A stretch of 64,000 bases of DNA from Parachlamydiales bacterium (GTDB lineage: Bacteria; Chlamydiota; Chlamydiia; Chlamydiales; Rhabdochlamydiaceae). The stretch is taken from positions 1,664,001-1,728,000 of the forward strand of contig OY970065.1 of the NCBI GenBank assembly GCA_963705295.1, read 5' to 3'. The notes under the pieces were generated by a model. The model saw nothing but the letters and a program-made list of their open reading frames with translations. It was not told the origin of the DNA and searched no databases. Positions within the stretch are counted from its first letter, which is position 1. Every line of letters starts with the position of its first letter. Shown one piece after another: positions 957 to 51,059 of the stretch. Both the position numbers and the translations under genes were made by a program.

Positions 957-1193
957 ATGACAGTAACTAAAAAACTAACTAGACACGGGAATAGTTACGC
1001 TCTCGTGATTGAACGTCCTATTCTCGAACTCTTGGGGATTGATACCGATACCTTGCTTCGAATTTCTACACCTGATGGGGCCTCCATTGTGATTACACCC
1101 GTCAAAGATAAAGCTCAAAAACGGAAGTTTTCAAGCTCGCTTAGAAAAATTAACAAAAAATATGGTAGAGTTCTCAAAAATTTAGCTGAATAA
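957..1193 (+). CDS. AbrB/MazE-family antitoxin
   Basis: KKLTRHGNSYALVI swapped-hairpin motif; 78 aa; stop overlaps toxin start (TAATG). Confidence 0.85.
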   Translation: MTVTKKLTRHGNSYALVIERPILELLGIDTDTLLRISTPDGASIVITPVKDKAQKRKFSSSLRKINKKYGRVLKNLAE

Positions 1194-1570
1194 TGTATTT
1201 TTTAACTCTCGAAGATGTCTTAGAAATTCATTCCGACCAGATCAACCGGTATGGCGGTAAAAGAGGAATTCGCGATCAAAATCTACTTCTTTCTGCTATT
1301 GCACAACCATTTAGTACTTTTGAGGGGCAATACCTCCATAAAACTATATTTGATAAAGCTTCAGCATATCTTTTCCATATCTGCCAAAATCATCCTTTTA
1401 TCGATGGGAATAAAAGAGTCGCTACAGTCTCAGCACTTTTATTTTTGGCTATGAATGATTATCCTATCGATTTTAAAGAAAGTGAGTTGGAAAAATTAGT
1501 GTTTTCAGTTGCCGAAGGCAAAAAGAAAAAACCTGAAATTGCTGCCTTTCTTGCTAAGAATTTAGGATAG
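1193..1570 (+). CDS. doc: Fic/Doc family toxin (death-on-curing type)
   Basis: HPFIDGNKR Doc motif; GIRD..LL.SA N-terminal motif; coupled to the upstream antitoxin. Confidence 0.9.
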   Translation: MYFLTLEDVLEIHSDQINRYGGKRGIRDQNLLLSAIAQPFSTFEGQYLHKTIFDKASAYLFHICQNHPFIDGNKRVATVSALLFLAMNDYPIDFKESELEKLVFSVAEGKKKKPEIAAFLAKNLG

Positions 1571-1597
1571 ACTTCTATTGACAATCACCCCTTTCTG

Positions 1598-1717
1598 AGC
1601 CGCCCTCCTCCCCAAATACAAAATCCCCATCCGCGCATTCCCCCTCCCCCTCAAACCAGCCTCAAACCCAATCGAAAAGAACTCGCCCAACGGATATCAA
1701 ATCTTCGTAACGAGTGA
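1598..1717 (+). repeat. Degenerate duplicate of the menE 3' end (copy 2, 1598-1690) followed by an alternative menE tail ...ELAQRISNLRNE*
   Basis: Differs from copy 1 by a 9-bp deletion, one missing C and one C>T change; continues in the menE terminal frame to TGA. Confidence 0.9.
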
Positions 1718-1772
1718 GTGTCGAGTTTTCTTCTAGATTGGTAATTGGATCCCCAGGTAACATTTTTGCATT

Positions 1773-4262
1773 ATGCCGGGAGTTCCTCCATTTCAAACGC
1801 AGAGGCTAGAGAATCTTTTCCGTCCGCCTGTTCTCGATAAATATATTCAAAAAACACCCGCGAAGAAAAAGAATTCCAAACCATTCTTGAAATGGATGTT
1901 TTTAGGCTTGGGAGTGATTTGTACCGTTATTTTTGTGTGGATGAGAACACCGGAAGTTCAAGAGTCGTTTACATATTTAAAAGGGCCGTTTCCTGATTTT
2001 ATCGGGCGAGAGAAATACTTGAATATTTTGAGTAGAGAACTGGTTCGTGTCGCTCCTGGAACTGTTCGAATGAAAGTGATTTGGGGAAGAGGCGGGTATG
2101 GAAAGAGCGAACTGGCTGTAGAATTTGCCAACCGTTTTAGGTCCCGTTTTTCACTCATTTGGACATTTTACTGCGATAGCGAGGAAAACATCCATCAAGG
2201 GTACCGAGATCTAGCTAATAAGTTGGGCATTTTGAATCCTTCCGATTCTTTTTCTAAAATCCGAGAGAAAGTCCATTTTTACTTAGAAAACCATCACTTT
2301 CATCTCCCCTGGCTGTTGCTCTTTGACAATGTGGAGGAAGAATTCAAGGAATATCCTCAACGGGGCGGAGCTATTTTAATCACTTCGCAGAAAAAAGTTT
2401 TAAATCCAGAATATCTTTTGGAAATCCATCCTTTTTCAAAAGAAGAATCGATCCAACTTCTGGAGAAAATTACCCATGAACCGCGCAGCGCAGCGATGGA
2501 AGAAGTTTTTCAAGACTTGGAAGGGATTCCCCTGCTGCTGAACTATGCTGCCCATTACATTAAAGCAACGCCCGGTTGCGGGGTCTCTGATTACCATACT
2601 CTTTTTTCATCCCATCTCTATGGAAAAGAAGGGCCTCTTTGGAATGAAACCGATGTCAATCGGAGATACTTTAAGAGTTTATTTTCTTCCTGGCAATTTC
2701 CTCTGAAAGCTCTAGAAAAAGAAAATCCACTTGCCCTTCAATGGCTCTATGTCTGCAGTTATTTGTATCCTGAACATATCCAAGAAGACTGGATCGATGA
2801 CTGGCTAAAGTTTAAACTTGGAAAGGAAAAACCTCTTGAAATCGAACGGAAAGAAATTCTAAAAACCCTGCAAGATTACGGTATCATCAAGTATCAGAGA
2901 GAATCGAAAACATTTTATCTCCACCGTTTTTTTCAACATATGATCCGCGATAGTCGTGAGGCGCATGCAGAAGACGACCTCAAAGAGACTGTTTCCCTGC
3001 TCGAGAAACACGAAGATGATTACAACTTTTTCAAAACATCGTCGTGGCAAGCCGGGAAAAATTGGCATTTACATGCAGTTGAAATCAAAAAGTGGCTTCA
3101 AAAATACCCGCATTTCTTATCTGATTCTTTTTCGATCAAGGTAAAAGCTGGCCTCTATGAATCGATCGGCATTTGGGATCTCTTTAATTACAGGTACCAT
3201 GATTCGACAGAAAACTTAAAGGAAGCCTTAAATTTGAGATTATCTTTGAATGAAAATTCTTTCCTTTTGGGAGAAGATTATTCTTCTATTGGATGGGCTT
3301 TGCTGGAAGAAGGAAACTTGAGGGAAGCCTCTGAATATCTTGCTAAAGGTGGCGAAATCCTCCAACTTTTTGTCGAGGGAGAACAAGGCCACCGGTTCGC
3401 TGACAATCTCAATTCACTCGGCCTGACAAATTTTGTCATGGGAAATTATGAAACGGCGCTCACTTATTTTCGAGATGCTTTAGCAATCAATGAAAAAAGA
3501 GAAGGGAACATCTATCAAATCTATACGAGCTGTAATCTCAATAACATTGGGCGGTGTCTCTTTGAACAAGGCCATTTCGATCAGGCTGAACGAACTTTTG
3601 ATCGATCGATTCAAGTGATGGACAAATCGTGCGATACCAAGCATCCGTATTATCTGTGGGTGCAAGTTTGGAAAGCCGATTGTCTATCGGCAAGAGGAGA
3701 TTTTAATAAAGCCTTACCGATGATTGAGAAAGCCTTAGCAGCATATCAGGGCCCTGAACATGGGGAATTAAACTACCCTTACAATGGCATGGGGGTGTGT
3801 TATTTCCACCTCAACCAATTCAAAAAAGCAAAGGAGATGTTCAAAAAAGGGTGTTATTTCGGTCAGAAATATTTTGGAAAAGAAAATCCTTATGCCGCTA
3901 GGTCGTATCCAGGTCTCGGTTGGTCGTATCTCAAGGAAAAAAAGGTCCGAAAAGGGGTGAAGTATCTTTTAAAAAGCCTCACTGTCGGGGTGCAGTGTCA
4001 TTTTTCTCCAGAGAAGATGACAAAGTTTCTCACCGATTTTCAAGAAGGGTTAAAAGAAGCAATCTATATTGAAGGAAAAACCGAGTACGTTAAGCATGCT
4101 GCTGCCATGGCGGGTGAGATCAGCGAAAAGGTGCTAGGCAAAGAGCACATTTTAACTCGATTTTTTCAAAACGATTATCTAGACTTGAAGCAAAATGAAA
4201 ATGGTCATCCTTTACTTTTTACTACCTTCTTTAATCTGGGGAGCAAGGAAAGAGCAAATTGA
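1773..4262 (+). CDS. Membrane-anchored NB-ARC (STAND) NTPase with C-terminal TPR repeats
   Basis: TM helix WMFLGLGVICTVIFVW; FIGRE; Walker A GRGGYGKS; Walker B WLLLFDNVE; sensor ILITSQ; GxP motif LEGIPLLL; TPR_12-like repeats (NLNSLG, NLNNIG). Confidence 0.85.
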   Translation: MPGVPPFQTQRLENLFRPPVLDKYIQKTPAKKKNSKPFLKWMFLGLGVICTVIFVWMRTPEVQESFTYLKGPFPDFIGREKYLNILSRELVRVAPGTVRMKVIWGRGGYGKSELAVEFANRFRSRFSLIWTFYCDSEENIHQGYRDLANKLGILNPSDSFSKIREKVHFYLENHHFHLPWLLLFDNVEEEFKEYPQRGGAILITSQKKVLNPEYLLEIHPFSKEESIQLLEKITHEPRSAAMEEVFQDLEGIPLLLNYAAHYIKATPGCGVSDYHTLFSSHLYGKEGPLWNETDVNRRYFKSLFSSWQFPLKALEKENPLALQWLYVCSYLYPEHIQEDWIDDWLKFKLGKEKPLEIERKEILKTLQDYGIIKYQRESKTFYLHRFFQHMIRDSREAHAEDDLKETVSLLEKHEDDYNFFKTSSWQAGKNWHLHAVEIKKWLQKYPHFLSDSFSIKVKAGLYESIGIWDLFNYRYHDSTENLKEALNLRLSLNENSFLLGEDYSSIGWALLEEGNLREASEYLAKGGEILQLFVEGEQGHRFADNLNSLGLTNFVMGNYETALTYFRDALAINEKREGNIYQIYTSCNLNNIGRCLFEQGHFDQAERTFDRSIQVMDKSCDTKHPYYLWVQVWKADCLSARGDFNKALPMIEKALAAYQGPEHGELNYPYNGMGVCYFHLNQFKKAKEMFKKGCYFGQKYFGKENPYAARSYPGLGWSYLKEKKVRKGVKYLLKSLTVGVQCHFSPEKMTKFLTDFQEGLKEAIYIEGKTEYVKHAAAMAGEISEKVLGKEHILTRFFQNDYLDLKQNENGHPLLFTTFFNLGSKERAN

Positions 4263-4959
4263 TCTCGTTCAAGAGAGGGCCGAATATTCTTCGCTCATCC
4301 AGGAGATTGCATTAACTCTTCAAGAGAAGAAAATCAAACTCGTGATGACCGATCTCAAAAACGAGAAAGACCATCTCGGGCTCGGCTATATCGTCATCTG
4401 GGACAGACCCGCTTCGATTACACCTGAAGTTCTGCGCCGTTTCGCACACAAAAAGCCGGTTTTATTTCTCTGGGAACCGGAAGCTTATGACCCTGCATAT
4501 GTGGCCCTTTTCAAACGGGTCTATACCTGGAATGACGACCTTGTTGACAATCAGAAATTTTTCAAATTTTACTATCCCGTCCTCCAAGCGATGGCAGGAA
4601 ATCTCCTCCCGTTTGAAAAAAGAAAACTCGTGACCCATAATCCTAAAGAGGCAGCCGAATTCAGATTCTGCATTTGCAAGGAGAAAGTGGAAACCAAAGG
4701 ATACATCTCCGAGAAGATCTTCCAGTGTTTTGCTGCGGGCTGCGTGCCGATTTATACGGGATCCAGCAATGTCACAGACTATATTCCCTCAAACTGCTTC
4801 ATCGATGGAAGAAAACTCCAGAATTTAGAAAACATAAGCCCGGCGACGTATGAAGAGTATCTAAATCATATCCGAGAGTTCCTCAAAAGTGATGAGGCCC
4901 ACTTATTTTCAAAAGAGATGTTTCAAGTTATTTTCTTGGAAGCCATTCGATTTCCTTAA
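4195..4959 (+). CDS. Glycosyltransferase family 10 (alpha-1,3-fucosyltransferase-like), possibly internally shortened
   Basis: FRFCICKE...GYISEKIFQCFAAGCVPIY matches the GT10 motif; LWEP and VYTWNDDLVD N-terminal motifs; signal-like N-terminus. Confidence 0.7.
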   Translation: MKMVILYFLLPSLIWGARKEQIDLVQERAEYSSLIQEIALTLQEKKIKLVMTDLKNEKDHLGLGYIVIWDRPASITPEVLRRFAHKKPVLFLWEPEAYDPAYVALFKRVYTWNDDLVDNQKFFKFYYPVLQAMAGNLLPFEKRKLVTHNPKEAAEFRFCICKEKVETKGYISEKIFQCFAAGCVPIYTGSSNVTDYIPSNCFIDGRKLQNLENISPATYEEYLNHIREFLKSDEAHLFSKEMFQVIFLEAIRFP

Positions 4960-6979: not shown

Positions 6980-7452
6980 TGAATAGGGAAGGCGGCGAAG
7001 ACGACAAAGTTGTTGACGCCGGGGTTTCGGCTCGAGAGGTGGGCGTTGGAAACGTGGTAGAACATGCCGCCGAAACGGTAGCCGCCACGGAAACGGTAGG
7101 CTCCCTCGAAGGCGGAGCGGAATTCTATCGGAAAACCTAAGTCTTTTCCGTAACCTCGGGAATAGACTCCAGGACAAAAACTGGGAGTAAAAACCAATCT
7201 TTTCCCGATGAAAATGTCGTAGCTGATTCCCCCATAAAGATAAGTTGAACCCATTTCTGAGCCGAAGATGCCAACCTGGGGCCGGAGCTGATCAATGACC
7301 GGTTTAAACTTGTATTCGACCTCCCAAAGATACCTTTTATGAACTCCCGTGACATTAAAAAGACCCATTCCCACAGAAAGAAGGCCCGGATCATCGATTG
7401 CATAGACTTTTCCTAGGAGAAGCAAAATAAAAATGCCAGTATATACCCTCAT
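6976..7452 (-). CDS. pagL: Lipid A 3-O-deacylase PagL / acyloxyacyl hydrolase family outer-membrane protein
   Basis: Signal peptide; EFRS..E and catalytic YHVSNA..NPG motif. Confidence 0.8.
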   Translation of the reverse strand: MRVYTGIFILLLLGKVYAIDDPGLLSVGMGLFNVTGVHKRYLWEVEYKFKPVIDQLRPQVGIFGSEMGSTYLYGGISYDIFIGKRLVFTPSFCPGVYSRGYGKDLGFPIEFRSAFEGAYRFRGGYRFGGMFYHVSNAHLSSRNPGVNNFVVFAAFPIH

Positions 7453-7522
7453 CCTTGTGTATAGATCCCCCGTTTGTTACAATACAGGTTTTGCAAAAAG
7501 TGTCAACCTTCCGAGGAAATAG

Positions 7523-9316
7523 ATGGATAAACGAACGATCATTTTTGTGGTTCTGATGACTGCGGCCTTCTTTCTGGTGAACCACTTTCTATTTCCCTCC
7601 AAACCTCAACCGGTCGCTCCTGTTGCGGTGCAAACAACTCCGGTCAAAGAGAAAACCGCTGTTGCTGTTTCCAATGAGATAAGATACGTGATCCAGAACG
7701 AATACCAACAGCTGGTGATATCCAATCTGAATGGGGGTGTTGCCGAAATCAACTTGCCTTTCAAAAGCCAAGAAAATCCGCAGAGTGTTGTCCGGAAGAT
7801 TCGGCCCGATATCATCTTAGAGGATGACTATCCAAACAGAGATCGATTTCCCGCAGGTCCGTACCAAACCTATCAAGGTAGTTTCAATCAAGGCGCCGTC
7901 GATGGGTATTATCCTTTGATCAGAAGAAGTAGCGCTCCTGAATACTACGCTCTTGCAACAGCTGCAAGCTCCCCTTTTAAATTGAAAAGATTGGAAAAAA
8001 ATTTGATTGAAATTGAAGGTTCAACCGACCACGGAACGATCACAAAGACCTACACATTGCCAGCCGATCCATCGGCAACGCCGTATTCATTCGATCTGCA
8101 AATCAAAGTTGAAGGGAAACCGGAAAACCTTTTTTTAACAACGGGTGTTCCAGAGGTAGAAATTGTTTCAGGAAGTTCGACTCAGATGCTGAAATACCGA
8201 TTGACGAAGGGGAAAAAAGGGATTGTCGAACAAATCTCTCTTCCGAAAACCGAAACGACCATCGGTTCGATTATCCCCAATTGGATTGCCAACTCGAATG
8301 GATTTTTTGCTGTGATTCTAGATCCTCAATCCGAAGTAGGACCAGGTGTAACAGCTTGGAAAGTCGATGGAAATCTTGTTCCGACAAGACTGACGGTGAT
8401 CGATTCGGAATATAACCTTTATCCTCCAAGCAACTATCCAGGATATCTCATGCAACTTCCCCTGAAAAACCAGGAAGGAACATACCATTTCCGGGTTTTT
8501 GCTGGACCACTCGCCACGACGATTTTGGAGAAGAATGACGCCGTCTATAAAGGCGACTATATCGCGACCAAGAGTTTCCATGGATGGTTTGCGTTTATTT
8601 CGGAACCTTTTGCGAAATTTTTATTCTTCCTCATGAAAATTTTCTATGCAGTCGTCCGGTCCTGGGGGGTTGCGATCATTCTTTTAACGATTGCACTGCG
8701 CGTCATGCTCTATCCTCTGAATGCCTGGTCGATTAAATCGACCATCAAAATGCAAAAACTGTCCCCAAAATTAACGGCTATTCAAGAGAAGTACAAAAAA
8801 GATCCTAAAAGAGCTCAAGTTGAAATCATGAACATGTACCGTCAGCAAGGGGTCAATCCATTAGGAGGATGTCTTCCTCTCTTGATCCAAATGCCGTTTT
8901 TGATTGGAATGTTCGAACTGCTGAAAACGACCTTTGAACTGAGGGGAGATCGGTTTATTCCGGGATGGATCGACAACCTGGCTGCACCCGACATCCTTTT
9001 CTCCTGGCATGCCCCGATTTGGTTTATCGGGACTTCGTTCCATCTTCTCCCCTTCCTGCTCGGTGCTACGATGTACTGGCAACAACGGATGTCGACGGCG
9101 GGCAAAGATCCGAAACAACTCACCGATCAGCAAAAGCAGCAACGGTTCATGGGAAATATCATGACTGTTGTTTTCACTGTTCTCTTTTACAATTTCCCTG
9201 CGGGCCTCAATATTTACTGGCTTTCGTCCATGTTACTGGGTATCCTGCAACAATGGTGGATGACCAAGAAAAGAGCCGATGAAAATTTGGGAAGAGTTCC
9301 TTCAAAACCAAGTTAA
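7523..9316 (+). CDS. yidC: Membrane protein insertase YidC
   Basis: MDKRTI N-terminal TM; WGVAIILLT; NPLGGCLPLLIQMP; PAGLNIYWLSS. Confidence 0.97.
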   Translation: MDKRTIIFVVLMTAAFFLVNHFLFPSKPQPVAPVAVQTTPVKEKTAVAVSNEIRYVIQNEYQQLVISNLNGGVAEINLPFKSQENPQSVVRKIRPDIILEDDYPNRDRFPAGPYQTYQGSFNQGAVDGYYPLIRRSSAPEYYALATAASSPFKLKRLEKNLIEIEGSTDHGTITKTYTLPADPSATPYSFDLQIKVEGKPENLFLTTGVPEVEIVSGSSTQMLKYRLTKGKKGIVEQISLPKTETTIGSIIPNWIANSNGFFAVILDPQSEVGPGVTAWKVDGNLVPTRLTVIDSEYNLYPPSNYPGYLMQLPLKNQEGTYHFRVFAGPLATTILEKNDAVYKGDYIATKSFHGWFAFISEPFAKFLFFLMKIFYAVVRSWGVAIILLTIALRVMLYPLNAWSIKSTIKMQKLSPKLTAIQEKYKKDPKRAQVEIMNMYRQQGVNPLGGCLPLLIQMPFLIGMFELLKTTFELRGDRFIPGWIDNLAAPDILFSWHAPIWFIGTSFHLLPFLLGATMYWQQRMSTAGKDPKQLTDQQKQQRFMGNIMTVVFTVLFYNFPAGLNIYWLSSMLLGILQQWWMTKKRADENLGRVPSKPS

Positions 9317-41728: not shown

Positions 41729-42880
41729 ATGTATAAGCGACTGTTAGAGAGGCCCTTAAAGAGCAAACAAAGTTTCTTCCTTTTTGGTCCTCGAGGAACG
41801 GGGAAAACTTCTTGGGCACGAGAAAAAATTCCTCACGGATTTTATATCGACCTTCTTGAAACAAACGCATTCATAGAACTCTCTGCAAATCCCGGCAGAA
41901 TCGAAGATATAATCCCCGACCATTTCTCTGATTGGATCATCATTGACGAAGTCCAGAAAATTCCCCAGCTTCTAAATGAAGTGCACCGCTTGATAGAAAA
42001 AAAACATTATAAATTCATCCTGACAGGTTCAAGTGCAAGAAGTCTCAAGAAAAAAGGTGTGAATCTGTTGGCGGGCCGTGCCCTCTCTTTCAAAATGTTC
42101 CCACTCACAGCTATGGAATTGAAAAACGATTTTCACTTAAGAAATTCTCTCAAATTTGGACACCTACCCTACATTTATACAAAAGATAACGAACAGGCAA
42201 AAATCGATTATCTTGAGGCTTACACTCAAACCTATTTAAAAGAAGAAGTGATGCAAGAAGGACTCACGCGTAACATTGGAGCTTTTTCTCGTTTTCTCGA
42301 AACAGCGAGTTTTTCTCAAGGCTCCATCATCAATATGTCTGAAGTAGCACGAGAAACTTCCATCAATCGAAAAGTCATTGAGAGTTATTTTCAAATTCTC
42401 GAAGACCTCCTCTTAGCTCAAAGTATCCCCATCTTTACCAAAAGGGCAAAAAGAAAACTGATCGCCCACTCTAAATTCTTTTTCTTTGATGTCGGCGTCT
42501 TTCGGGCCATTCAACCTAAAGGTCCTTATGATACCGAAGAGGAAAATGATGGGGCTGCATTTGAAACACTCACCTACCAAGAACTTCAAGCCATCAATCA
42601 CTATTTTAACTTCCAATACAAAATCTATTTTTGGCGCACCGTTGACAAGGTTGAGGTCGACTTTGTTCTCTATGGCCCCAAAGGGATTATTGCCATCGAG
42701 GTCAAGAGAACAGCCTCCATCGATCCCAAAGACTTGAAAGGACTCAAATCTTTCGGTGAAGATTATCCTGAAGCCAAATTATTTCTCTTTTATGGTGGGA
42801 AAAGAAGAGAATATAAAGACAATATTCAAATCATTCCATTAGAAGAAGCCTTACCGCTCCTTCCTGAACTTCTCTCTTAG
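41729..42880 (+). CDS. AAA_14 ATPase + DUF4143 (wHTH / PD-(D/E)XK-like) protein
   Basis: GPRGTGKT, IDEVQK, LTGSS, LAGRA, FWRT..KVEVDFV...IEVK. Confidence 0.9.
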   Translation: MYKRLLERPLKSKQSFFLFGPRGTGKTSWAREKIPHGFYIDLLETNAFIELSANPGRIEDIIPDHFSDWIIIDEVQKIPQLLNEVHRLIEKKHYKFILTGSSARSLKKKGVNLLAGRALSFKMFPLTAMELKNDFHLRNSLKFGHLPYIYTKDNEQAKIDYLEAYTQTYLKEEVMQEGLTRNIGAFSRFLETASFSQGSIINMSEVARETSINRKVIESYFQILEDLLLAQSIPIFTKRAKRKLIAHSKFFFFDVGVFRAIQPKGPYDTEEENDGAAFETLTYQELQAINHYFNFQYKIYFWRTVDKVEVDFVLYGPKGIIAIEVKRTASIDPKDLKGLKSFGEDYPEAKLFLFYGGKRREYKDNIQIIPLEEALPLLPELLS

Positions 42881-44146: not shown

Positions 44147-44629
44147 TTAAAAACAAATTCCATAAGAAATAGAGACTCCGGGACAAAAACCAACCATTGT
44201 CAGCCCTCCATTCAATAAATCCTTGAAAGGCCAGTCGATTTGCGCTTGAACAAAACGTAGATTTCCCCTTTTCGTTGTAAATTCATTTCCAATGACAAAT
44301 TCAGGGGAGAAAAAAATGCCGCCAAATTTTTTATCGAACAATTCTGAGAAGGCAATTCCAATCCCTTCATAAAATTGTGACTTTGTGTTGGGATTAAAAT
44401 AATGGAGATAGACGAGGCTTTGCTTGGCAGCAAAATCATAAAACCATGCCAATTGTATGAGTGCATCCAATCCATGATGTCCATTTTGATACCTCCATCC
44501 CAAACCTACTTGCGGTGCAGGTATGGGTAGGGGTCCGATACCCACGTTGACATATCCATGAGACGACTTGACTTCTTCTGCAAAAACAGCGCCACAGGCT
44601 ATTAAACAAATAATTCCAAATTTTTTCAT
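44147..44629 (-). CDS. Small outer-membrane beta-barrel-like protein
   Basis: AGGAG RBS before MKKFGII; signal peptide; C-terminal SYGICF. Confidence 0.6.
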   Translation of the reverse strand: MKKFGIICLIACGAVFAEEVKSSHGYVNVGIGPLPIPAPQVGLGWRYQNGHHGLDALIQLAWFYDFAAKQSLVYLHYFNPNTKSQFYEGIGIAFSELFDKKFGGIFFSPEFVIGNEFTTKRGNLRFVQAQIDWPFKDLLNGGLTMVGFCPGVSISYGICF

Positions 44630-44762
44630 GAATATTCTCCTTAACGCCATTAATTAGATCAGAGAATTTCATTATTGAACAAGAATTAAAATAAACATTA
44701 AATAATAAATTTAAGTAACGCTCATTCATGAACTGGTAGATAAGAATGCTTTCCGTTGCTGA

Positions 44763-44955
44763 TTAACCCGACACGCAAAAAAGAGACAAGATGCGTAAGC
44801 GAACCCCTGTCAGATCGAAGCGTCAGCGGTCCGACCGACGAGGACCCCATCGATAGGTTAGGGCGATAGGCTAGGCCGAGGAGGAGGATCGATCTGCCCC
44901 TATCTGACAGGGGGGTGCAGCCAGCAGGTTGTCTCTTTGTTGCGTGTCGGGTTAA
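44763..44955. mobile_element. Non-autonomous palindromic element (MITE) with TTAA/TA ends
   Basis: TTAACCCGACACGCAA.AAAGAGACAA...CCCCTGTCAGAT paired with ATCTGACAGGGG...TTGTCTCTTT.TTGCGTGTCGGGTTAA; GC-rich in AT-rich context. Confidence 0.85.
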
Positions 44956-45484
44956 TATTTTCTGAAGTGTGATCGGATAAAATGAATTGAGCGGCAATGT
45001 GTCCCTGATCTGCTGCTTTTCGATACCACTTGATGGCTTCATTCGAATTTTGCTGCACTCCATACCCATTTGAATAACACTTTCCTAAGCGATATTGGGC
45101 TTCAGCAACTCCTTGATCTGCTGCTTTTCGATACCAAATAAATGCTTCAATATTATCTTGAACAACACCTCGACCAAAATGGTAACAATATCCTAGGTTG
45201 GATTGAGCAAGAGCAAACCCCTGATCTGCAGCTGCTCTGAAATAGTTAAAAGCCGTGGCTTCACTTTTTGTTACTCCGTATCCATTAAAGTAACATTCTC
45301 CCAGCTTGAATTGCGCTGGAGCAAATCTTTGATCCGCGGCTTTTTTAAACCACTCAGCAGCCACTTTACGATCTATGGCTGTTCCAAGGCCTAAGCTATA
45401 GAACATTCCAATTCGATATTGCTGAGTTGAATGAGGTGCAATAGTCATATCTTCAATATCCTTCGTAACCTGTCCAGTTTCCAT
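44900..45484 (-). CDS. Sel1-repeat protein; C-terminus replaced by MITE sequence
   Basis: Four AQxxLG.CY..G.GV...A..W.RKAADQG repeats. Confidence 0.85.
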   Translation of the reverse strand: METGQVTKDIEDMTIAPHSTQQYRIGMFYSLGLGTAIDRKVAAEWFKKAADQRFAPAQFKLGECYFNGYGVTKSEATAFNYFRAAADQGFALAQSNLGYCYHFGRGVVQDNIEAFIWYRKAADQGVAEAQYRLGKCYSNGYGVQQNSNEAIKWYRKAADQGHIAAQFILSDHTSENINPTRNKETTCWLHPPVR

Positions 45485-45953
45485 ATTTTATAACAAAGTG
45501 ACCTGGTTGAGAGACCAGATTATCAATTTTTAAACATCTCTCGGCGTCTAATTCGTCCAGCGATGTCAAACGTCTAAAATATGCCAATCCGGCTTCTGTG
45601 ATTTTTGGAATGGAGCAAAGCATAATTCTTCTGATGCTAGCGCTCCGATTTTTGTCACAACTCTCAGCGATCACTTTGAGATCACTGTCTTGGAGATCAT
45701 AGCAATGTGAAAAATCTAAGCATTCACATTTAAAACAAGTTTGCAAAAACTCCTCAAGAACATGAGGAGTAAATGTTTTATTTTTAGCATATTGAAGCCT
45801 GATAGCTTTTACACTTTGTCCTAAAGAACTTGCTGCCTTAAAAATATCATCCGCACAGATATCGTTAGGGACACTGTAATTAGACGGGTGTATTGGCTCA
45901 TGTAGATCAATACAAATATTTAATGGAAATGGCAATAATGTAACCATGCTCAT
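45453..45953 (-). CDS. Leucine-rich-repeat (cysteine-containing, AMN1/FBXL-like) protein; possibly the N-half of a frameshifted LRR-Sel1 gene
   Basis: LDFSHCYDLQDSDL, ITEAGLAYFRRLTSLDELD..C..I. Confidence 0.65.
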   Translation of the reverse strand: MSMVTLLPFPLNICIDLHEPIHPSNYSVPNDICADDIFKAASSLGQSVKAIRLQYAKNKTFTPHVLEEFLQTCFKCECLDFSHCYDLQDSDLKVIAESCDKNRSASIRRIMLCSIPKITEAGLAYFRRLTSLDELDAERCLKIDNLVSQPGHFVIKYGNWTGYEGY

Positions 45954-45970
45954 AATAATTCTCCAAATGT

Positions 45971-46840
45971 TTATTCAAGATCGTAACCGATCTTAAAACC
46001 TTTTTTTTCTTTTTTAATATTTCGAATCGATACCGTTCCTATCTCTGAGGTATTCATGACATGCGTACCTCCGCAAGGATAAGCAGGCAGGTCGCCAAAC
46101 TGTATTGTTCGAGGAGTCTCTTCCCATCGATTTTTGAGTGGAAGACGTTCTTGAATCAATTTATTGACAAGATCACAGGCTCTTTCTTTCAGTTCTTGGA
46201 GATTCTCTGGAAGTTGCTCACCATCAAATAATACGAAGGCTTGTTTTGGAAAATGATTTCCATTACATCCGTCTACTTGAGGATAGAGTCGATGAACTGC
46301 ATTGGATAAAAGATGGCCTGCTGAATGATACCGAGCAAATAATTTGCGCGATTCCATATGAATGACTTGTAAAACGACCTGATCGACTCGGAGAACATTT
46401 TGATCAGAAACATAATAATGTTTGATGATATACGGATTCTCATAAGGATTGCGTGGTGCCGATAATTTACTGACGGTAAATTTAGTTCCATCGACCTCAA
46501 AATAGCCTTGATCGTCTGGCTGTCCTCCTCCTTGGGGATGAAATACCGTTTTATCGAAAACCACAAACCGACCCTTTTCGTCATCTCCTAAACTGAGAAT
46601 TCTTGCATCGAGTCGATCAAGATAAGTATCTCGATAGTAAACTCTTTCTGTTGATGGGATTGTTGGCGTCATAATTTTTTCTCCTATATTTATTTTTTTT
46701 GATTCAGATACAAAATGTCTTTGGGTGAAAAATAGGGCATTTACCTTCCTATTTGCCTGAGCCGCTTTGACCCTGTTCATTCTTGAAAAAGTCAAATTCA
46801 CCCGAAAGCTCCCGATACCCCTTTTTGCATGGATTGCCAT
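45971..46840 (-). CDS. Free-standing alanyl-tRNA editing protein (AlaX family); internal SD-led start at 46672
   Basis: TERVYYRD, DKTVFHPQGGGQPDD, HSAGH and CGGTH Zn motifs. Confidence 0.9.
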   Translation of the reverse strand: MAIHAKRGIGSFRVNLTFSRMNRVKAAQANRKVNALFFTQRHFVSESKKINIGEKIMTPTIPSTERVYYRDTYLDRLDARILSLGDDEKGRFVVFDKTVFHPQGGGQPDDQGYFEVDGTKFTVSKLSAPRNPYENPYIIKHYYVSDQNVLRVDQVVLQVIHMESRKLFARYHSAGHLLSNAVHRLYPQVDGCNGNHFPKQAFVLFDGEQLPENLQELKERACDLVNKLIQERLPLKNRWEETPRTIQFGDLPAYPCGGTHVMNTSEIGTVSIRNIKKEKKGFKIGYDLE

Positions 46841-46841
46841 C

Positions 46842-47669
46842 TTAACTCCAAAAATGCATGGGTTTGTTCTCTCCTTGATACAGAATAAACCCAGAAAGGG
46901 AAATACGTGTCTGAGCTTCCCCTACTTCAGATACAGCATGCACTTTACGCGGATTGAAAATGACAAGCTCTCCTGGTTTCGGTTGAATCGTTAGACCAGG
47001 GGGTGGAAGTAACGAACGGTCAATACCGTAACTTGAACCCCGTAATTTGTGATAGACTTTGTCCTCGAGGGAAATGTCCCAAAGTTGTAGGGCTCCTCCA
47101 GAAGGAGGTACGGCTAGATAACAATTGAAAGCTGCTTGTCCAACGTAATGAGTTTTTGACACAATCGATGGATCGTCTCTTTCTAGTTTATCTTCATGAG
47201 GAAGAATTTCTTTTCTTGTAGCACGGATTAATCCTACGAACATCGAACCTTCCCCTAAATTTAAAAGAGATGCCCCGTGATTCCACATGTCTTCAAGAGT
47301 CAAGCGGACTTTGTCTATCGGTGAGAGATAAGGTGAAAATATATCGCGAACTGCCCTTATAGAGGCCGAAACCTGATGGTAGTATGCGTTTTTTGAAGTA
47401 GGATCTTCTACCTCAAAATAAGCCATACCGATATCTTTGTATTTTCCCACTCCTGCTGCATTTGTATAATCAACAATTTCTTTTTCCCGCAATTTAGCAA
47501 GAGCGTGATCCAAAACGTTTGTGGAACAAAATTCTGGAACCCTTAATACAGAAATTTTTCCCTGAAAAAGATCATGGATATCTTCAATCCTTAAGGAATC
47601 AGATTGCCTACATACCCAGGGTTGTTGCATGACGGTTTTTGGGCTTTCGCATGTTCTTGTCGTTGTCAT
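46842..47669 (-). CDS. 2OG-Fe(II) dioxygenase
   Basis: HED...NCYL...GGALQLW...PKPGELVIFN..H.V...R.S facial triad and 2OG-binding RxS; GGAGG RBS. Confidence 0.85.
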   Translation of the reverse strand: MTTTRTCESPKTVMQQPWVCRQSDSLRIEDIHDLFQGKISVLRVPEFCSTNVLDHALAKLREKEIVDYTNAAGVGKYKDIGMAYFEVEDPTSKNAYYHQVSASIRAVRDIFSPYLSPIDKVRLTLEDMWNHGASLLNLGEGSMFVGLIRATRKEILPHEDKLERDDPSIVSKTHYVGQAAFNCYLAVPPSGGALQLWDISLEDKVYHKLRGSSYGIDRSLLPPPGLTIQPKPGELVIFNPRKVHAVSEVGEAQTRISLSGFILYQGENKPMHFWS

Positions 47670-47803
47670 AAAAAACCTCCTAAATTTGGTTATGCGATCT
47701 ATGCTATCCTTAAGTTGGATTAAATTTCAAACAAAAAGATCAGAAATAGATCATGCCAGTCCAGAAAACGAATGTTTTTAGACAAGAAATCATTTTTTGA
47801 TAT

Positions 47804-48427
47804 TCAGAAAAATATCAGCTTAAAAGCAAATCCTATCAGAAGAATCCCCATGACAAGGGTTAGATGAGGTTGAATACGTTTGAATCTGTGATTAAACGAT
47901 GGGTGAGTGAGAATGAAGCTGAGTAATGCAAACCAAGAAAAAGTAATGAGCACAATTTCTGAAGCTATGAGTGAAAGATGTGCTACAGAAATGGTTGGCT
48001 GAACAATTTGTGTGAAAAGACCCATAACGAATAAACCGGCCTTAGGATTCAGGATATTACATAAAAAACCAGAAACAAAAGCTTGTTTGGCTGATATCTC
48101 TTGACCCATATTTTCTGTTTTTACCTCGGATGCACGGACTTTTTGTTTCCAAATGAGTTGACTACCGAGATAAAACAGATAAGCTGCGCCAGCATATTTG
48201 ATGATCGTATACACGATTTTCGATTGTTGAATGATCACGGCAAGCCCCAGTGATGAATATAAAACGTGAATAAGAAGGGCTAATGCGACACCGAGGCCTG
48301 TTAAAATCCCCATTCGTCTTGAACCGATAAGGCTATTTTTTGTGACCAAGACAAAGTCAGGCCCAGGACTTATTGCACCTAAAAGGACAATCAAACCCAG
48401 AGAAAAGAACTCAAAAAGATTAAACAT
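47804..48427 (-). CDS. LysE/RhtB family amino-acid exporter
   Basis: SPGPDF, GAAYLFYLG, GFLCNILNPKA. Confidence 0.93.
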   Translation of the reverse strand: MFNLFEFFSLGLIVLLGAISPGPDFVLVTKNSLIGSRRMGILTGLGVALALLIHVLYSSLGLAVIIQQSKIVYTIIKYAGAAYLFYLGSQLIWKQKVRASEVKTENMGQEISAKQAFVSGFLCNILNPKAGLFVMGLFTQIVQPTISVAHLSLIASEIVLITFSWFALLSFILTHPSFNHRFKRIQPHLTLVMGILLIGFAFKLIFF

Positions 48428-48462
48428 CGTCAAAATATGATATCAGTTTTGGGTATAGGTTG

Positions 48463-49083
48463 TCACCTTTTTATGGCCCTCGGGTTAATAGAACGTAAAG
48501 ACTCTTCAACAAGAGTACGCCGCCCCTGAGAGGGAATTTTCTGAATCATAGCAAAGGCTTTTTTAACATTGAAAGAGGAGGGTATTTCAATTTCTGGCAA
48601 ACTTTTAAACCAGAGAGATTTTGCTGGCTTTAAATAAAAAAAATCGAGAAGAGCTTTTTCTGGAGTTGCCATTTTAACATGGGTTTTTGGATCAAAGGTA
48701 TAGTCAAAGAAGAATTCAGGTGCAATATGATGCACCGATATGACTCCGAGCGGAGTTTCAATGCGACGTGTCCGTGCAAGAGAAACAACTGTGATAACAC
48801 GGGGAATTTGATCGATCATTCCATGGTGATAAAGAGCGGTTTGTAAAGAGATATAACAAGGAAAAGGTTCTACTAAATATTCCGGAATGAGCAAAGGGTT
48901 TAATTGAAGATCGATAACCCAGAGACCTCTCGATAGATGAATAATGTGTTTTTCCATCGCTAATCTTCTGAGAACCTGACTTGCGTGTCCATTACTCAAA
49001 CCCAGTTTATATGCAACGTCCTCTGTTTTCATCACCGGAACTTTTACACTTTGAAGAACTTTTAAGGCCGATAACAACCTCAT
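48463..49083 (-). CDS. AbiEi-type (type IV TA) antitoxin
   Basis: N-terminal wHTH (LRRLA...LSRGLW); YISLQTALYHHGMIDQ; ATPEKALLD. Confidence 0.85.
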   Translation of the reverse strand: MRLLSALKVLQSVKVPVMKTEDVAYKLGLSNGHASQVLRRLAMEKHIIHLSRGLWVIDLQLNPLLIPEYLVEPFPCYISLQTALYHHGMIDQIPRVITVVSLARTRRIETPLGVISVHHIAPEFFFDYTFDPKTHVKMATPEKALLDFFYLKPAKSLWFKSLPEIEIPSSFNVKKAFAMIQKIPSQGRRTLVEESLRSINPRAIKR

Positions 49084-49820
49084 TGCAGCGACTCCAAATA
49101 CTCAACGACTGTCAACTGAATTTTATTCCAGGTTTCTCGGTTATATTGTGATTGTAAATCTGCCGGAAAAAAAGCTAGAACCTGATCTTTGAAATCAGGA
49201 AAACTAATATGATATGCATTCTCACAAGCTTTTAGTAAATATTCTCGATCCTCTACTTTCACTCTGTAGGCATGCATGAGGTGAAAAAGGTCCCAAATAT
49301 CGCGAGCTTGCGTTTCGGTTCGAGAAGCTAAGGCCCTTATTTTTTGTTTAAATGCAATCTCAGGGCCATAATGAGGTACAAAGATGGGGTATAGCCGATA
49401 TGCATTTAATACAGCAGAGTCGATCGATTCAAATTCTACAGGAACTTCAAGGCCTCTTCTTGAAAACTCGATTTTGGTGGGAAAAGACATTCCTGCGTCA
49501 GTTTTTAATAGAACTTTCCAACGTTGCGTTGTTTCTGTTTGTTTCGGTTCGGAAATTTGAGCAATTTCAAGTGTATGGGCTTTAAGAATCGTAGCCAGCG
49601 CAGGAGATAATAAAATGTTATTGACAGTTTTTTGTAGTGTTGTAACTCGGATAGTTTTTACATCAAGATCAATATCTTGAGAATAACGAATACTTCCCAA
49701 AAAAAATCTGAGATTGCAACCACCTTTTAGAGAATAGAGTCGTTTGTCTAACCTTCTTCCTAATTGATCTAAAAAAACGAGATGAAAAAACTCTACACTC
49801 TGAACAGGATCGTATTTCAT
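49080..49820 (-). CDS. AbiEii-type nucleotidyltransferase toxin
   Basis: LKGGCNL...RYSQDIDL; KIEFS; QKIRAL..R...RDIWD. Confidence 0.88.
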   Translation of the reverse strand: MKYDPVQSVEFFHLVFLDQLGRRLDKRLYSLKGGCNLRFFLGSIRYSQDIDLDVKTIRVTTLQKTVNNILLSPALATILKAHTLEIAQISEPKQTETTQRWKVLLKTDAGMSFPTKIEFSRRGLEVPVEFESIDSAVLNAYRLYPIFVPHYGPEIAFKQKIRALASRTETQARDIWDLFHLMHAYRVKVEDREYLLKACENAYHISFPDFKDQVLAFFPADLQSQYNRETWNKIQLTVVEYLESLQ

Positions 49821-49826
49821 TTTTTT

Positions 49827-49855
49827 ATAATACGAATAAATGACACTAATGTCAA
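49827..49855 (-). promoter_or_regulatory. Near-consensus sigma66 promoter with palindromic operator
   Basis: TTGACA-N17-TATTAT on the minus strand, 6 nt from the ATG; TGACA-N4-TGTCA palindrome (49841-49854). Confidence 0.75.
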
Positions 49856-49973
49856 CCATTTGTATTATGGACATAAGCTTTTAATCCTTAAGTATATAAA
49901 TCACTGAATCTCTCGAGCTTGTTCTAAAACGATCTTAAATGTAGACTCACACAAAAGCATAATAGGAATTTTT

Positions 49974-51059
49974 ATGAATATATCGTTGGTTTTTTTAAGG
50001 GTGTTGTTTCTGGTGCTCAGCATGGTGTTCATGACCATTTATATGCATTCGATGCCTGAGGGGAAAACGTTTTCCAACACGATTTTTGGAATGGGACTGG
50101 GTTTTGTTTTTGGAATGTTGCTGATTGGACTCGATATGACCTTTCGAAGGTTCAACCTACGATCATTTAATATTGCGATCATTGGAATTTTCATCGGCTA
50201 TTTGATGGGCCAGGCGCTGATTTTGGTATTCGATGCGATCGTCGACATCAGTTCCATTTCCGTTGTGTTCAAACCGCAGACGTTGGAGATCATCAAGATT
50301 GCCCTTCTTCTCTTTGGTGTTTACCTTGGAATGGTTATGACCTTGCGATCGAGCGATGAACTCTATATCAGCATTCCGTTTGTTCGCCTCACACAGGCAG
50401 CCCAGAAGAAAAAAGATCTCGTTGTCGATATCTCTGTTCTTGCCGACCCTCGCATTTATGACTTGGCGGCGACAGGACTTTTGGATCATCAGCTCATTAT
50501 TCCACGATTTGTCATTAAGGAACTGTATGCCCAAGCTGAAACAGGGGATGAAAACACCAAACATCGGGCGAAACGGTGCCTGGAGGTGGCTAAAAAACTA
50601 GAAGAGATCCCCCATCTGGGCCTTCGGTATAACGAGACCGACTTTCCTGACGTCAAAGACATGATGGGAAAAATCGTCCGGCTCTCTCGTCTTCTCGATG
50701 CAAATATTTTGAGTTCCGACATCAGCCGTGTACAAATGGCTACGATTGAGGGTATCACCGTTATTAATATCCACGCGCTGTCCAATGCCTTAAAACCGCT
50801 CATGCAAGGTGGGGAACTCATCCGCATTAAAATCCAAAGATATGGAAAAGAACCGCGTCAAGGAGTCGGCTACCTTGAAGATGGAACAATGGTCGTTGTC
50901 AATGGCGGAGGAGACTACATCGGCCAAACGATCGAAGCGCGGGTTCTCTCTGTCAAACACACCTCTTCAGGACGGATGGTTTTCTGTAATGTTGCCGAAG
51001 AAGAGGGTGAAGAGCCACCTTTTACAGAAGAAGAACCTACGGAAGATGAGGAACAGTAG
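49974..51059 (+). CDS. Membrane PIN/TRAM domain protein (YacL family)
   Basis: 4 TMs; VDISVLADPRI PIN; GKEPRQGVGYLEDGTMVVV TRAM. Confidence 0.9.
   Translation: MNISLVFLRVLFLVLSMVFMTIYMHSMPEGKTFSNTIFGMGLGFVFGMLLIGLDMTFRRFNLRSFNIAIIGIFIGYLMGQALILVFDAIVDISSISVVFKPQTLEIIKIALLLFGVYLGMVMTLRSSDELYISIPFVRLTQAAQKKKDLVVDISVLADPRIYDLAATGLLDHQLIIPRFVIKELYAQAETGDENTKHRAKRCLEVAKKLEEIPHLGLRYNETDFPDVKDMMGKIVRLSRLLDANILSSDISRVQMATIEGITVINIHALSNALKPLMQGGELIRIKIQRYGKEPRQGVGYLEDGTMVVVNGGGDYIGQTIEARVLSVKHTSSGRMVFCNVAEEEGEEPPFTEEEPTEDEEQ

Follow-up and report, generated by a model that had tools for sequence, protein, structure and literature searches.

What is the function of three small, co-directional genes for an amino-acid exporter, an iron-dependent oxygenase and a tRNA-editing deacylase in a chlamydia-like bacterium that lives inside other cells? 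We examined this question for a Parachlamydiales bacterium of the family Rhabdochlamydiaceae (assembly GCA_963705295.1; genome G000 in our set), using a stretch of 64,000 nucleotides of contig OY970065.1 (positions 1,664,001 to 1,728,000), which is called the window below and whose numbering is used throughout. The list of open reading frames (ORFs) of the window contains lysE, the oxygenase gene and alaX on the minus strand within 2.5 kb, as an earlier note on this DNA had described when it spoke of three co-oriented accessory genes. That note read them as a module that makes a non-proteinogenic amino acid, exports it and protects its producer. The conserved linkage of the genes, the occurrence of the same triad in distant bacteria and the precedent of the Alf cluster (PMC13149037) argue for this reading, and we consider it rather probable that the cassette is a minimal mobile cluster for making, proofreading and exporting a non-canonical amino acid. 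The features of the cassette are as follows.

47804..48427, minus strand: exporter of the LysE/RhtB family (Pfam LysE), 207 aa when counted from ATG 48427; the ORF itself begins at TTG 48433.
46842..47669, minus strand: Fe(II)/2-oxoglutarate (2OG) oxygenase with a WelO5-like fold (Pfam WelO5, PF22814), 275 aa.
45971..46672, minus strand: AlaX-M-like free-standing deacylase (AlaX-M homology), core form, 233 aa from ATG 46672.
45971..46840, minus strand: AlaX-like ORF, long form, 289 aa from the junction ATG 46840.
46673..46840, minus strand: basic, non-conserved, in-frame stretch of 56 codons, which is an extension of AlaX at its N-terminus or else a spacer that is not translated.

The distribution and the linkage of the genes were determined in related genomes. 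The oxygenase was found in one of the 41 nearest-relative genomes, namely G000 itself (0 of 40 relatives), and in 10 of the 400 genomes sampled from the phylum, which are spread across nine families when that of the window is counted. Twelve close-family loci were compared: the window, L002–L005 from species genomes, L006–L008 from metagenomes, and G083, G166, G214 and G231 from the phylum sample. G256, G086 and G101 are contigs of L002, L003 and L005 and were not counted twice. We left out G289, which has a distant oxygenase (E 1e-34) and no AlaX within ~6 kb, and G205, whose contig of 1.7 kb was matched in part. The earlier note had named a lack of linkage in other genomes as grounds for giving up its reading, and the result was clearly the opposite: in 11 of the 12 loci the neighbour of the oxygenase gene is an AlaX gene, directly downstream on the same strand in 10 and divergent in L003, and LysE lies at most 2.5 kb from the oxygenase in five (the window, L002, L005, L007 and G083). 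The LysE homologues of the other four loci have 39–42% identity and lie beside the oxygenase–AlaX pair. The flanking genes otherwise differ among the 12 loci. Furthermore, for 12 of the 26 other oxygenase matches the longest contig was exactly as long as that of an AlaX match. The divergences of oxygenase and AlaX were correlated over 19 pairs (Mantel r 0.84, a value reached by 0 of 5000 permutations), which reflects co-inheritance only, as expected for linked kin, and is no functional evidence by itself.

Two variant arrangements were observed in the course of this comparison. In L045 (G083:C2, 6600-8542), two tandem copies of the oxygenase gene lie upstream of one AlaX gene, and a LysE gene is present on the opposite strand at a distance of 0.9 kb. 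In G015:C22 (L010/L015), from the same genus as the window, another AlaX paralogue (31% identity; L015 7933-8718) lies with a LysE gene (7303-7911), accompanied by a regulator of the YheO type (PAS/HTH) and a class I/II aminotransferase, and with no oxygenase within ~6 kb. This is a second type of AlaX–LysE module.

The same triad was also found in distant proteobacteria. A tblastn search with the oxygenase against plasmids gave 17 records of 24–37% identity, and 11 plasmid or chromid loci were examined. AlaX was adjacent in five of them (Acinetobacter johnsonii, Undibacterium, Caballeronia and two Photobacterium replicons), and LysE was also present in three of the 11. The A. johnsonii plasmid (NZ_CP068209.1) is a MOBP plasmid of 6.3 kb whose cargo consists only of AlaX, oxygenase and LysE; here and in Photobacterium sp. 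GJ3, genes of the three Pfam families are neighbours in uncharacterised loci. The plasmid oxygenase can be aligned with that of the window from end to end and keeps the active-site triad, the YGI motif and the C-terminal WS, and its AlaX partner keeps the zinc motifs. These loci differ from the window in the low identity of the proteins (33% for the oxygenase and 30% for AlaX), in the absence of N-terminal leaders and in gene order, which is AlaX, oxygenase, LysE rather than LysE, oxygenase, AlaX. The A. johnsonii plasmid oxygenase is part of a large proteobacterial family of 256-aa oxygenases, with 196 proteins at E<=1e-20, from Pseudomonas, Xenorhabdus, Photorhabdus, Pectobacterium, Halomonas, Advenella and others.

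To our knowledge, small-molecule biosynthesis of this sort has not been described in Chlamydiota. Among the papers listed by a literature search on AlaX in Chlamydia, none deals with such a module, judged by titles and the openings of abstracts. The concept itself is already in print (Millar et al. 2026 Nat Chem, PMC13149037), and its novelty is therefore smaller than the earlier note had supposed. According to that article, the genes of AlaX-family deacylases are markers of clusters for the biosynthesis of non-canonical amino acids, and a four-gene cluster of an AlaX-family deacylase, a regulator, a transporter and an Fe/2OG dioxygenase occurs in 134 genomes. In Alcaligenes faecalis, the dioxygenase AlfC acts on free methionine and hydroxylates its beta carbon to give (2S,3R)-hydroxymethionine, and the AlaX-family protein AlfB preferentially strips hydroxymethionine from tRNA-Met (PMC13149037). 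The article also describes BesG, which removes beta-ethynylserine from tRNA-Thr, as well as canonical AlaX-M, which edits Ser- and Gly-tRNA-Ala in primary metabolism; a beta-hydroxyl is common to the AlaX-family substrates that it names, namely Ser, beta-ethynylserine and hydroxymethionine (PMC13149037). No LysE, WelO5, Pfam or Alcaligenes terms occur in eight of its supplementary xlsx tables.

The cassette of the window resembles the Alf cluster in that the same three classes of protein, an Fe/2OG dioxygenase, an AlaX-family deacylase and a transporter, occur together. Both are small and self-contained; the Alf cluster is described as conserved over many genomes and independent of genes for nonribosomal peptide synthetases, polyketide synthases or peptides that are ribosomally synthesised and modified post-translationally (RiPPs) (PMC13149037). 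The cassette has three of the four Alf parts and lacks the regulator. Furthermore, the Alf host is a free-living proteobacterium, whereas that of the window is an intracellular bacterium of the Planctomycetes–Verrucomicrobia–Chlamydiae group whose oxygenase belongs to a rare clade of 27 proteins. As for BesG of the Streptomyces cattleya beta-ethynylserine cluster, the same article presents an AlaX-family protein that confers self-resistance to a beta-hydroxy amino-acid product, as proposed here for the cassette, but as part of a five-enzyme pathway. A link of the window oxygenase to this bes cluster was considered and rejected: the only relative of it found on the megaplasmid of S. cattleya, at 25% identity, lacks an AlaX gene within 9 kb.

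The same three activities also fit detoxification, which the earlier note had raised as its alternative. In this case, a toxic analogue from the host or from other microbes would be inactivated by the oxygenase, mischarged tRNA would be cleared by AlaX, and LysE would expel the analogue or its product. Deacylases that protect against xenobiotic amino acids are cited in PMC13149037, and the AlaX–LysE pair of G015:C22 shows that these two proteins can work without a linked producer enzyme. However, in the Alf cluster, the one cluster of this composition to have been characterised, the oxygenase gives rise to the mischarged species and does not remove it (PMC13149037). The near-obligate pairing of oxygenase and AlaX (11 of 12) is what a producer–immunity pair predicts, and an oxygenase that detoxified the analogue would render the deacylase largely redundant. 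We consider detoxification improbable and retain the production of a non-canonical amino acid as the preferred reading.

The oxygenase gene has an AGGAGG 6 nt 5' of its ATG 47669. Its product matches Pfam WelO5 (PF22814) with an E value of 1.1e-11 and 45.2 bits against a gathering cut-off of 27, a match that covers residues 178–275 only, and Pfam 2OG-FeII_Oxy_3 with 2.5e-07. The family is rare, with 27 proteins at E<=0.001 among 5.77 billion. In an alignment of these 27 sequences H158, D160, H244 and R255 are invariant, the HxD lies in a HEDKLERD motif, and the C-terminal WS is conserved; phmmer aligns H244 and R255 with the His and Arg of WelO5. The AF2 model of the oxygenase (pLDDT 92.2, pTM 0.88) gave WelO5 chains (PDB 5iqs/5iqt) as the top Foldseek matches, with template-modelling (TM) scores of 0.66–0.76 and E values of ~1e-13, followed by the N-substituted amino-acid dioxygenase SadA (TM 0.58–0.61); all others were below 0.5. 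The oxygenase thus has the double-stranded beta-helix fold of the WelO5 type. The G166D variant of WelO5 (5iqu) is among the matches, and the ESM Atlas returned 'WelO5 family' and nothing further. WelO5 is similar to the proposed role in being a carrier-protein-independent Fe/2OG enzyme acting on a free small molecule; it differs in being a halogenase, in its substrate, an indole alkaloid, and in sharing 16–19% identity with the oxygenase.

The Pfam and UniRef names suggested that the oxygenase is itself a halogenase. The halogenase WelO5 carries Gly at the position where the HxD of the oxygenase has Asp. All 27 members of the family have H-E-D rather than the HxG/A of halogenases, in which the missing carboxylate makes room for chloride. 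Since the family keeps the carboxylate of the triad, halogenase identity was rejected, and the oxygenase is therefore predicted to be a hydroxylase.

In regard to the second gene of the pair, the long AlaX-like ORF (45971..46840) matches Pfam tRNA_SAD with 3.8e-09 and NCBIfam AlaXM with 2.9e-29, the latter at 102.5 bits and below the cut-off of 300. On these scores its product is a divergent relative of AlaXM and not an equivalog. The solved AlaX-M chains 9iuw (1.3e-20) and 2e1b (6.1e-20) match residues 62–277 of the long form. FHPQGGGQ, HSAGH and CGGTH align with both chains, so that the GGGQ, HxxxH and CxxxH motifs of the N-domain and the zinc site are intact, and the motifs are conserved in all linked homologues shown. 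The protein is free-standing (233 or 289 aa), without a synthetase catalytic domain and without DHHA1. G000 has no second free-standing AlaX; its other match is the alanyl-tRNA synthetase, a separate gene (G000:C1:670431-670850, in an open frame of 807 aa). AlaX-M of Pyrococcus horikoshii (2e1b) and its homologue 9iuw have the same two-domain build without a C-terminal DHHA1; the cassette protein differs from 2e1b in belonging to a separate clade that travels with the oxygenase. In three other relatives (L012 1498-2220, L013 1468-2184 and L014 1495-2205), an AlaX-like gene lies beside a gene like those for beta-eliminating lyase and threonine aldolase, and these AlaX-like proteins have DGGTQ or DGGTI where the zinc motif CGGTH is usual.

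The exporter matches Pfam LysE with 5.9e-35 (121 bits against a cut-off of 25.6), its residues 18–207 covering profile positions 2–190 of 193. The best NCBIfam match, to the homoserine/threonine efflux subfamily TIGR00949, reached 157 bits and thus not the cut-off of 184, with RhtC and LeuE weaker; RhtB, RhtC and LeuE are related to it as exporters of the LysE superfamily. The scores of all substrate-defined subfamilies (RhtB, RhtC, LeuE, LysE and EamB) are below their cut-offs, and the assignment therefore stops at the level of the LysE/RhtB family. Pfam matches, motifs and the solved AlaX-M chains thus back the three family assignments that the earlier note had made from the letters alone.

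Taken together, the assignments suggest the following course of events. The oxygenase would introduce a hydroxyl group into one of the proteinogenic L-amino acids in its free form, with the beta carbon as the most plausible position. The product would be close enough to the parent amino acid to be charged onto the parent's tRNA. The AlaX-family deacylase would then selectively hydrolyse the mischarged tRNA, so that the proteome of the producer would stay clean, and the LysE-type exporter would pump the analogue out, which for an intracellular bacterium would be into the inclusion or the host cell. The beta carbon is favoured because all AlaX-family substrates named in the Alf article have a beta-hydroxyl, because AlfC is described there as a beta-hydroxylase and because SadA is a beta-hydroxylase of N-succinyl amino acids. 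The tRNA concerned need not be tRNA-Ala; the AlaX-family cases above act on tRNA-Met and tRNA-Thr.

Several observations weigh against a dedicated production cassette. The oxygenase of G231 has no AlaX within 6 kb, and LysE is missing near seven of the 12 pairs, with L008 being uninformative in this respect because its contig ends inside AlaX. Six of the 11 plasmid relatives are without AlaX and lie in other contexts (aminotransferase, RiPP-like genes, methyltransferase and others). The likeness to the Alf cluster is one of gene-family composition and does not by itself imply orthology with AlfB and AlfC; Alcaligenes is not among the names of the 120 relatives listed for the plasmid oxygenase, most of which are unnamed. 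The Alf cluster has a regulator, and Pfam and NCBIfam revealed no family of dedicated transcriptional regulators among the ORFs of the island in which the cassette lies; the sole neighbour of a DNA-binding type is an AbiEi-like antitoxin upstream. The numbers of promoter-like and terminator-like sites (10 and 5, against 14.0 and 4.0 expected from shuffles) were uninformative, and the operon structure of the cassette is therefore putative. Finally, the benefit of an antimetabolite to an obligate intracellular bacterium is hard to see.

The start of alaX was examined separately. The oxygenase gene ends with TGG AGT TAA, followed by G and by ATG 46840, which opens 56 basic codons (12 K+R against 2 D+E) in frame with the AlaX core. 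The junction TAAgATG, with one base between the genes, is thus present as the earlier note had read it, but the true gene boundary is uncertain, since the homology to AlaX begins only at about residue 62 of the long ORF, near an internal ATG at 46672 with AGGAG 8 nt upstream. The gene call (P0028) corresponds to the form of 233 aa starting at this ATG; if the short form is real, the gap between the oxygenase gene and alaX is 169 nt. No Rfam match was found at E<=1 in 44500..50100, and hence no known leader or riboswitch in the 168 nt before the AlaX core. A similar layout with two starts was observed in L002, L004/L008 and L007, where the junction ATG lies 1–6 nt past the stop codon and is followed by 26–66 open basic codons and an internal Shine–Dalgarno sequence and ATG. 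The stretches are 46673-46840 in the window, 8808-8906 in L002, 8789-8866 in L004 and 5767-5964 in L007, and records labelled Gigaspora rosea, as well as P0029, share the layout. The leader was absent in L005, L006 and the Rhizophagus record. A rough estimate of the probability that four such stretches are open by chance is ~1e-4 to 1e-5, and because this is so improbable the long form may well be translated. The two starts could give two isoforms or could reflect translational coupling. The codons for the conserved C-terminal Trp-Ser of the oxygenase, TGGAG(T/C), also provide a GGAG before the junction ATG.

Basic leaders were also found in the oxygenase family. Most members, including those on clearly chlamydial contigs (L003 7875-, L004 7923- and L005 7869-), have leaders of 20–45 residues with many Arg, Ser and Thr and almost no Asp or Glu, whereas the N-terminus of the window oxygenase is short and non-basic. 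In appearance these leaders resemble mitochondrial presequences or secretion signals.

Such leaders allow for a different explanation, namely that the oxygenase, the long AlaX or both are secreted and act in the host cell, possibly in mitochondria, with the leaders as secretion or targeting signals. In most oxygenase members the core follows a stretch in which Arg, Lys, Ser and Thr are frequent and acidic residues scarce, the AlaX extension is basic and open in the window, L002, L003, L004 and L007, and of 37 ORFs of the window that served as controls just 8% have a net charge of at least +5 in the first 30 residues. The concentration of the clade in endosymbionts (Chlamydiales and Mollicutes-related endobacteria) and in fungal records is also in line with action in a host. 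However, many leaders may be over-extended ORF calls, the window oxygenase itself has none of this kind, and L005, L006 and the Rhizophagus record are without an AlaX leader. Furthermore, the proteobacterial members keep the triad without leaders, and a membrane exporter in the cassette favours action within the bacterium. For these reasons we regard a host-directed pair as very unlikely.

The phylogeny of AlaX is relevant to the fungal records. In the AlaX tree, the window protein is placed in a clade (SH-aLRT 97) that holds most of the oxygenase-linked AlaX proteins and whose members include records labelled Rhizophagus irregularis, Gigaspora, Funneliformis, Apophysomyces and Candidatus Moeniiplasma, metagenome-assembled genomes (MAGs) of Chlamydiales and a Leptospiraceae MAG. 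Two oxygenase-linked proteins (L005/P0085 and P0103) sit in the neighbouring clade. The nearest relatives, with 47–62% identity (P0030, P0031, P0052, P0057, P0058 and P0064), bear fungal labels including Gigaspora rosea, Funneliformis, Entrophospora and Apophysomyces, and other near relatives are from Mollicutes-related endobacteria. The protein labelled Rhizophagus irregularis shares 62% identity with that of the window and is encoded on a contig of 879 kb. The membership of this clade points to transfer among intracellular bacteria and fungi; the quick tree is unrooted and does not indicate its direction. A speculative extension, to which we give little credence, is that the rare clade constitutes a host-interaction device of intracellular bacteria (Chlamydiales and Mollicutes-related endobacteria of arbuscular mycorrhizal fungi) and of fungi, spread by horizontal transfer between bacteria and fungi. 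Such a device would release a beta-hydroxy antimetabolite in the host, and the two starts of alaX would supply a short bacterial form and a long form whose basic leader has it exported or targeted to organelles of the host.

The least likely explanation is that the substrate hydroxylated by the oxygenase is an aminoacyl-tRNA or one of the proteins or RNAs of the translation machinery, with AlaX as a quality-control factor and not as immunity: one relative is named 'Rps23 Pro-64 3,4-dihydroxylase Tpa1-like', OGFOD1 is among the Foldseek matches and basic leaders could aid tRNA binding, but the TM score of OGFOD1 is 0.46–0.47 against ~0.72 for WelO5, the substrates of WelO5 and SadA are small molecules, a free amino-acid product is suggested by the recurrence of the LysE exporter, and AlfC acts on free methionine (PMC13149037). 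The genomic surroundings of the cassette bear on the mobility proposed for it, and their features are listed below.

44651..49973, no strand: genome-specific insertion of ~5.3 kb that carries the cassette, AbiE, Sel1 and a leucine-rich-repeat (LRR)-like ORF.
44900..45484, minus strand: Sel1-repeat protein, 194 aa with 4 repeats (Pfam Sel1, 4.5e-46), at the left end of the island.
45453..45953, minus strand: LRR-like ORF of small size (166 aa), the next one downstream of alaX; no Pfam match.
48463..49083, minus strand: AbiEi-like antitoxin (Pfam AbiEi_1, 4.2e-4, 21 bits against 22.2), at the right end of the island.
49080..49874, minus strand: AbiEii toxin (Pfam AbiEii, 1.6e-15, 58 bits against 22.5), at the right end of the island.

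The genes of G004 and G006 are arranged as Lgt, orf153, orf167, PIN/TRAM and AcpS, and ~0.4 kb between orf167 and PIN/TRAM takes the place of window 44651..49973. A similar arrangement without orf167, with Lgt, orf153 and PIN/TRAM contiguous, was found in G002. The GC content is 0.36–0.41 inside the island and 0.44–0.47 outside. The empty site and the lower GC content confirm the island that the earlier note had recognised, and the cassette, AbiE, Sel1 and the LRR-like ORF form a species-specific insertion at a variable spot. We propose that the island of ~5.3 kb was acquired horizontally and carried the AbiE pair along. In G016 (L029, G016:C1:1037900-1044400, 1036-4758), another species of the genus, a different insert of ~3.7 kb was observed between PIN/TRAM and orf153, and this spot thus seems to be a hotspot at which the content varies. 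The 64-kb window contains no tRNA genes, and thus no tRNA integration site, and a repeat search gave no clear direct repeats at the island borders. At the left border there is a 33-nt inverted repeat (44762-44794 and 44924-44956) whose arms, 129 nt apart, are 91% complementary; it overlaps with the Sel1 gene at the 3' end of the latter, and a weak 21-nt partner of the 44762 repeat is located just upstream of lysE (48469-48489).

The borders of the island are in part as the earlier note had described them. On the right, where it placed an AbiE toxin–antitoxin module, the toxin AbiEii is solid (1.6e-15), but the AbiEi-like gene is below both curated cut-offs, as it matches NCBIfam TAA_AbiEi with 2e-13 and 50 bits against 150. 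The two genes overlap by 4 nt, which is typical of AbiE type IV toxin–antitoxin systems. On the left, where it placed repeat-effector genes, the Sel1 protein is well supported, and its gene is absent at the same position in relatives, but the LRR-like ORF has no family match. This ORF shares 23% identity over 130 aa (pairwise E 3e-07) and a C-terminal W-GYEG with an ORF of 145 aa at the same place in L007 (6802-7239), and it is possibly an accessory gene of the cassette. A longer LRR protein after alaX in L005 (9463-10497; Pfam LRR_6, 6.7e-16) is not detectably related to it. ATPases of defence or mobile types (AAA_21 of the 'putative AbiEii toxin' type and AAA_14/DUF4143) were observed in L006 (6896-8254), L004 (6591-7730) and the window (41729-42880); their presence near the cassette in several loci is consistent with a location in variable regions.

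If the proposed reading is correct, the synthesis and export of a non-canonical amino acid take place in a chlamydia-like bacterium that is obligately intracellular. The cassette would be of a known kind (PMC13149037), here from a rare clade and in an unexpected intracellular lifestyle, and common to fungal endosymbionts and fungi. With three genes in 2.5 kb, it is small enough to be directly testable in Escherichia coli. The clade would offer a new oxygenase subfamily for the biocatalytic C-H hydroxylation of amino acids, and work on translational fidelity would gain a new AlaX specificity. Because it is distributed patchily over Chlamydiales, fungal endosymbionts, fungal records and proteobacterial plasmids, it may be a useful marker of gene flow among intracellular organisms.

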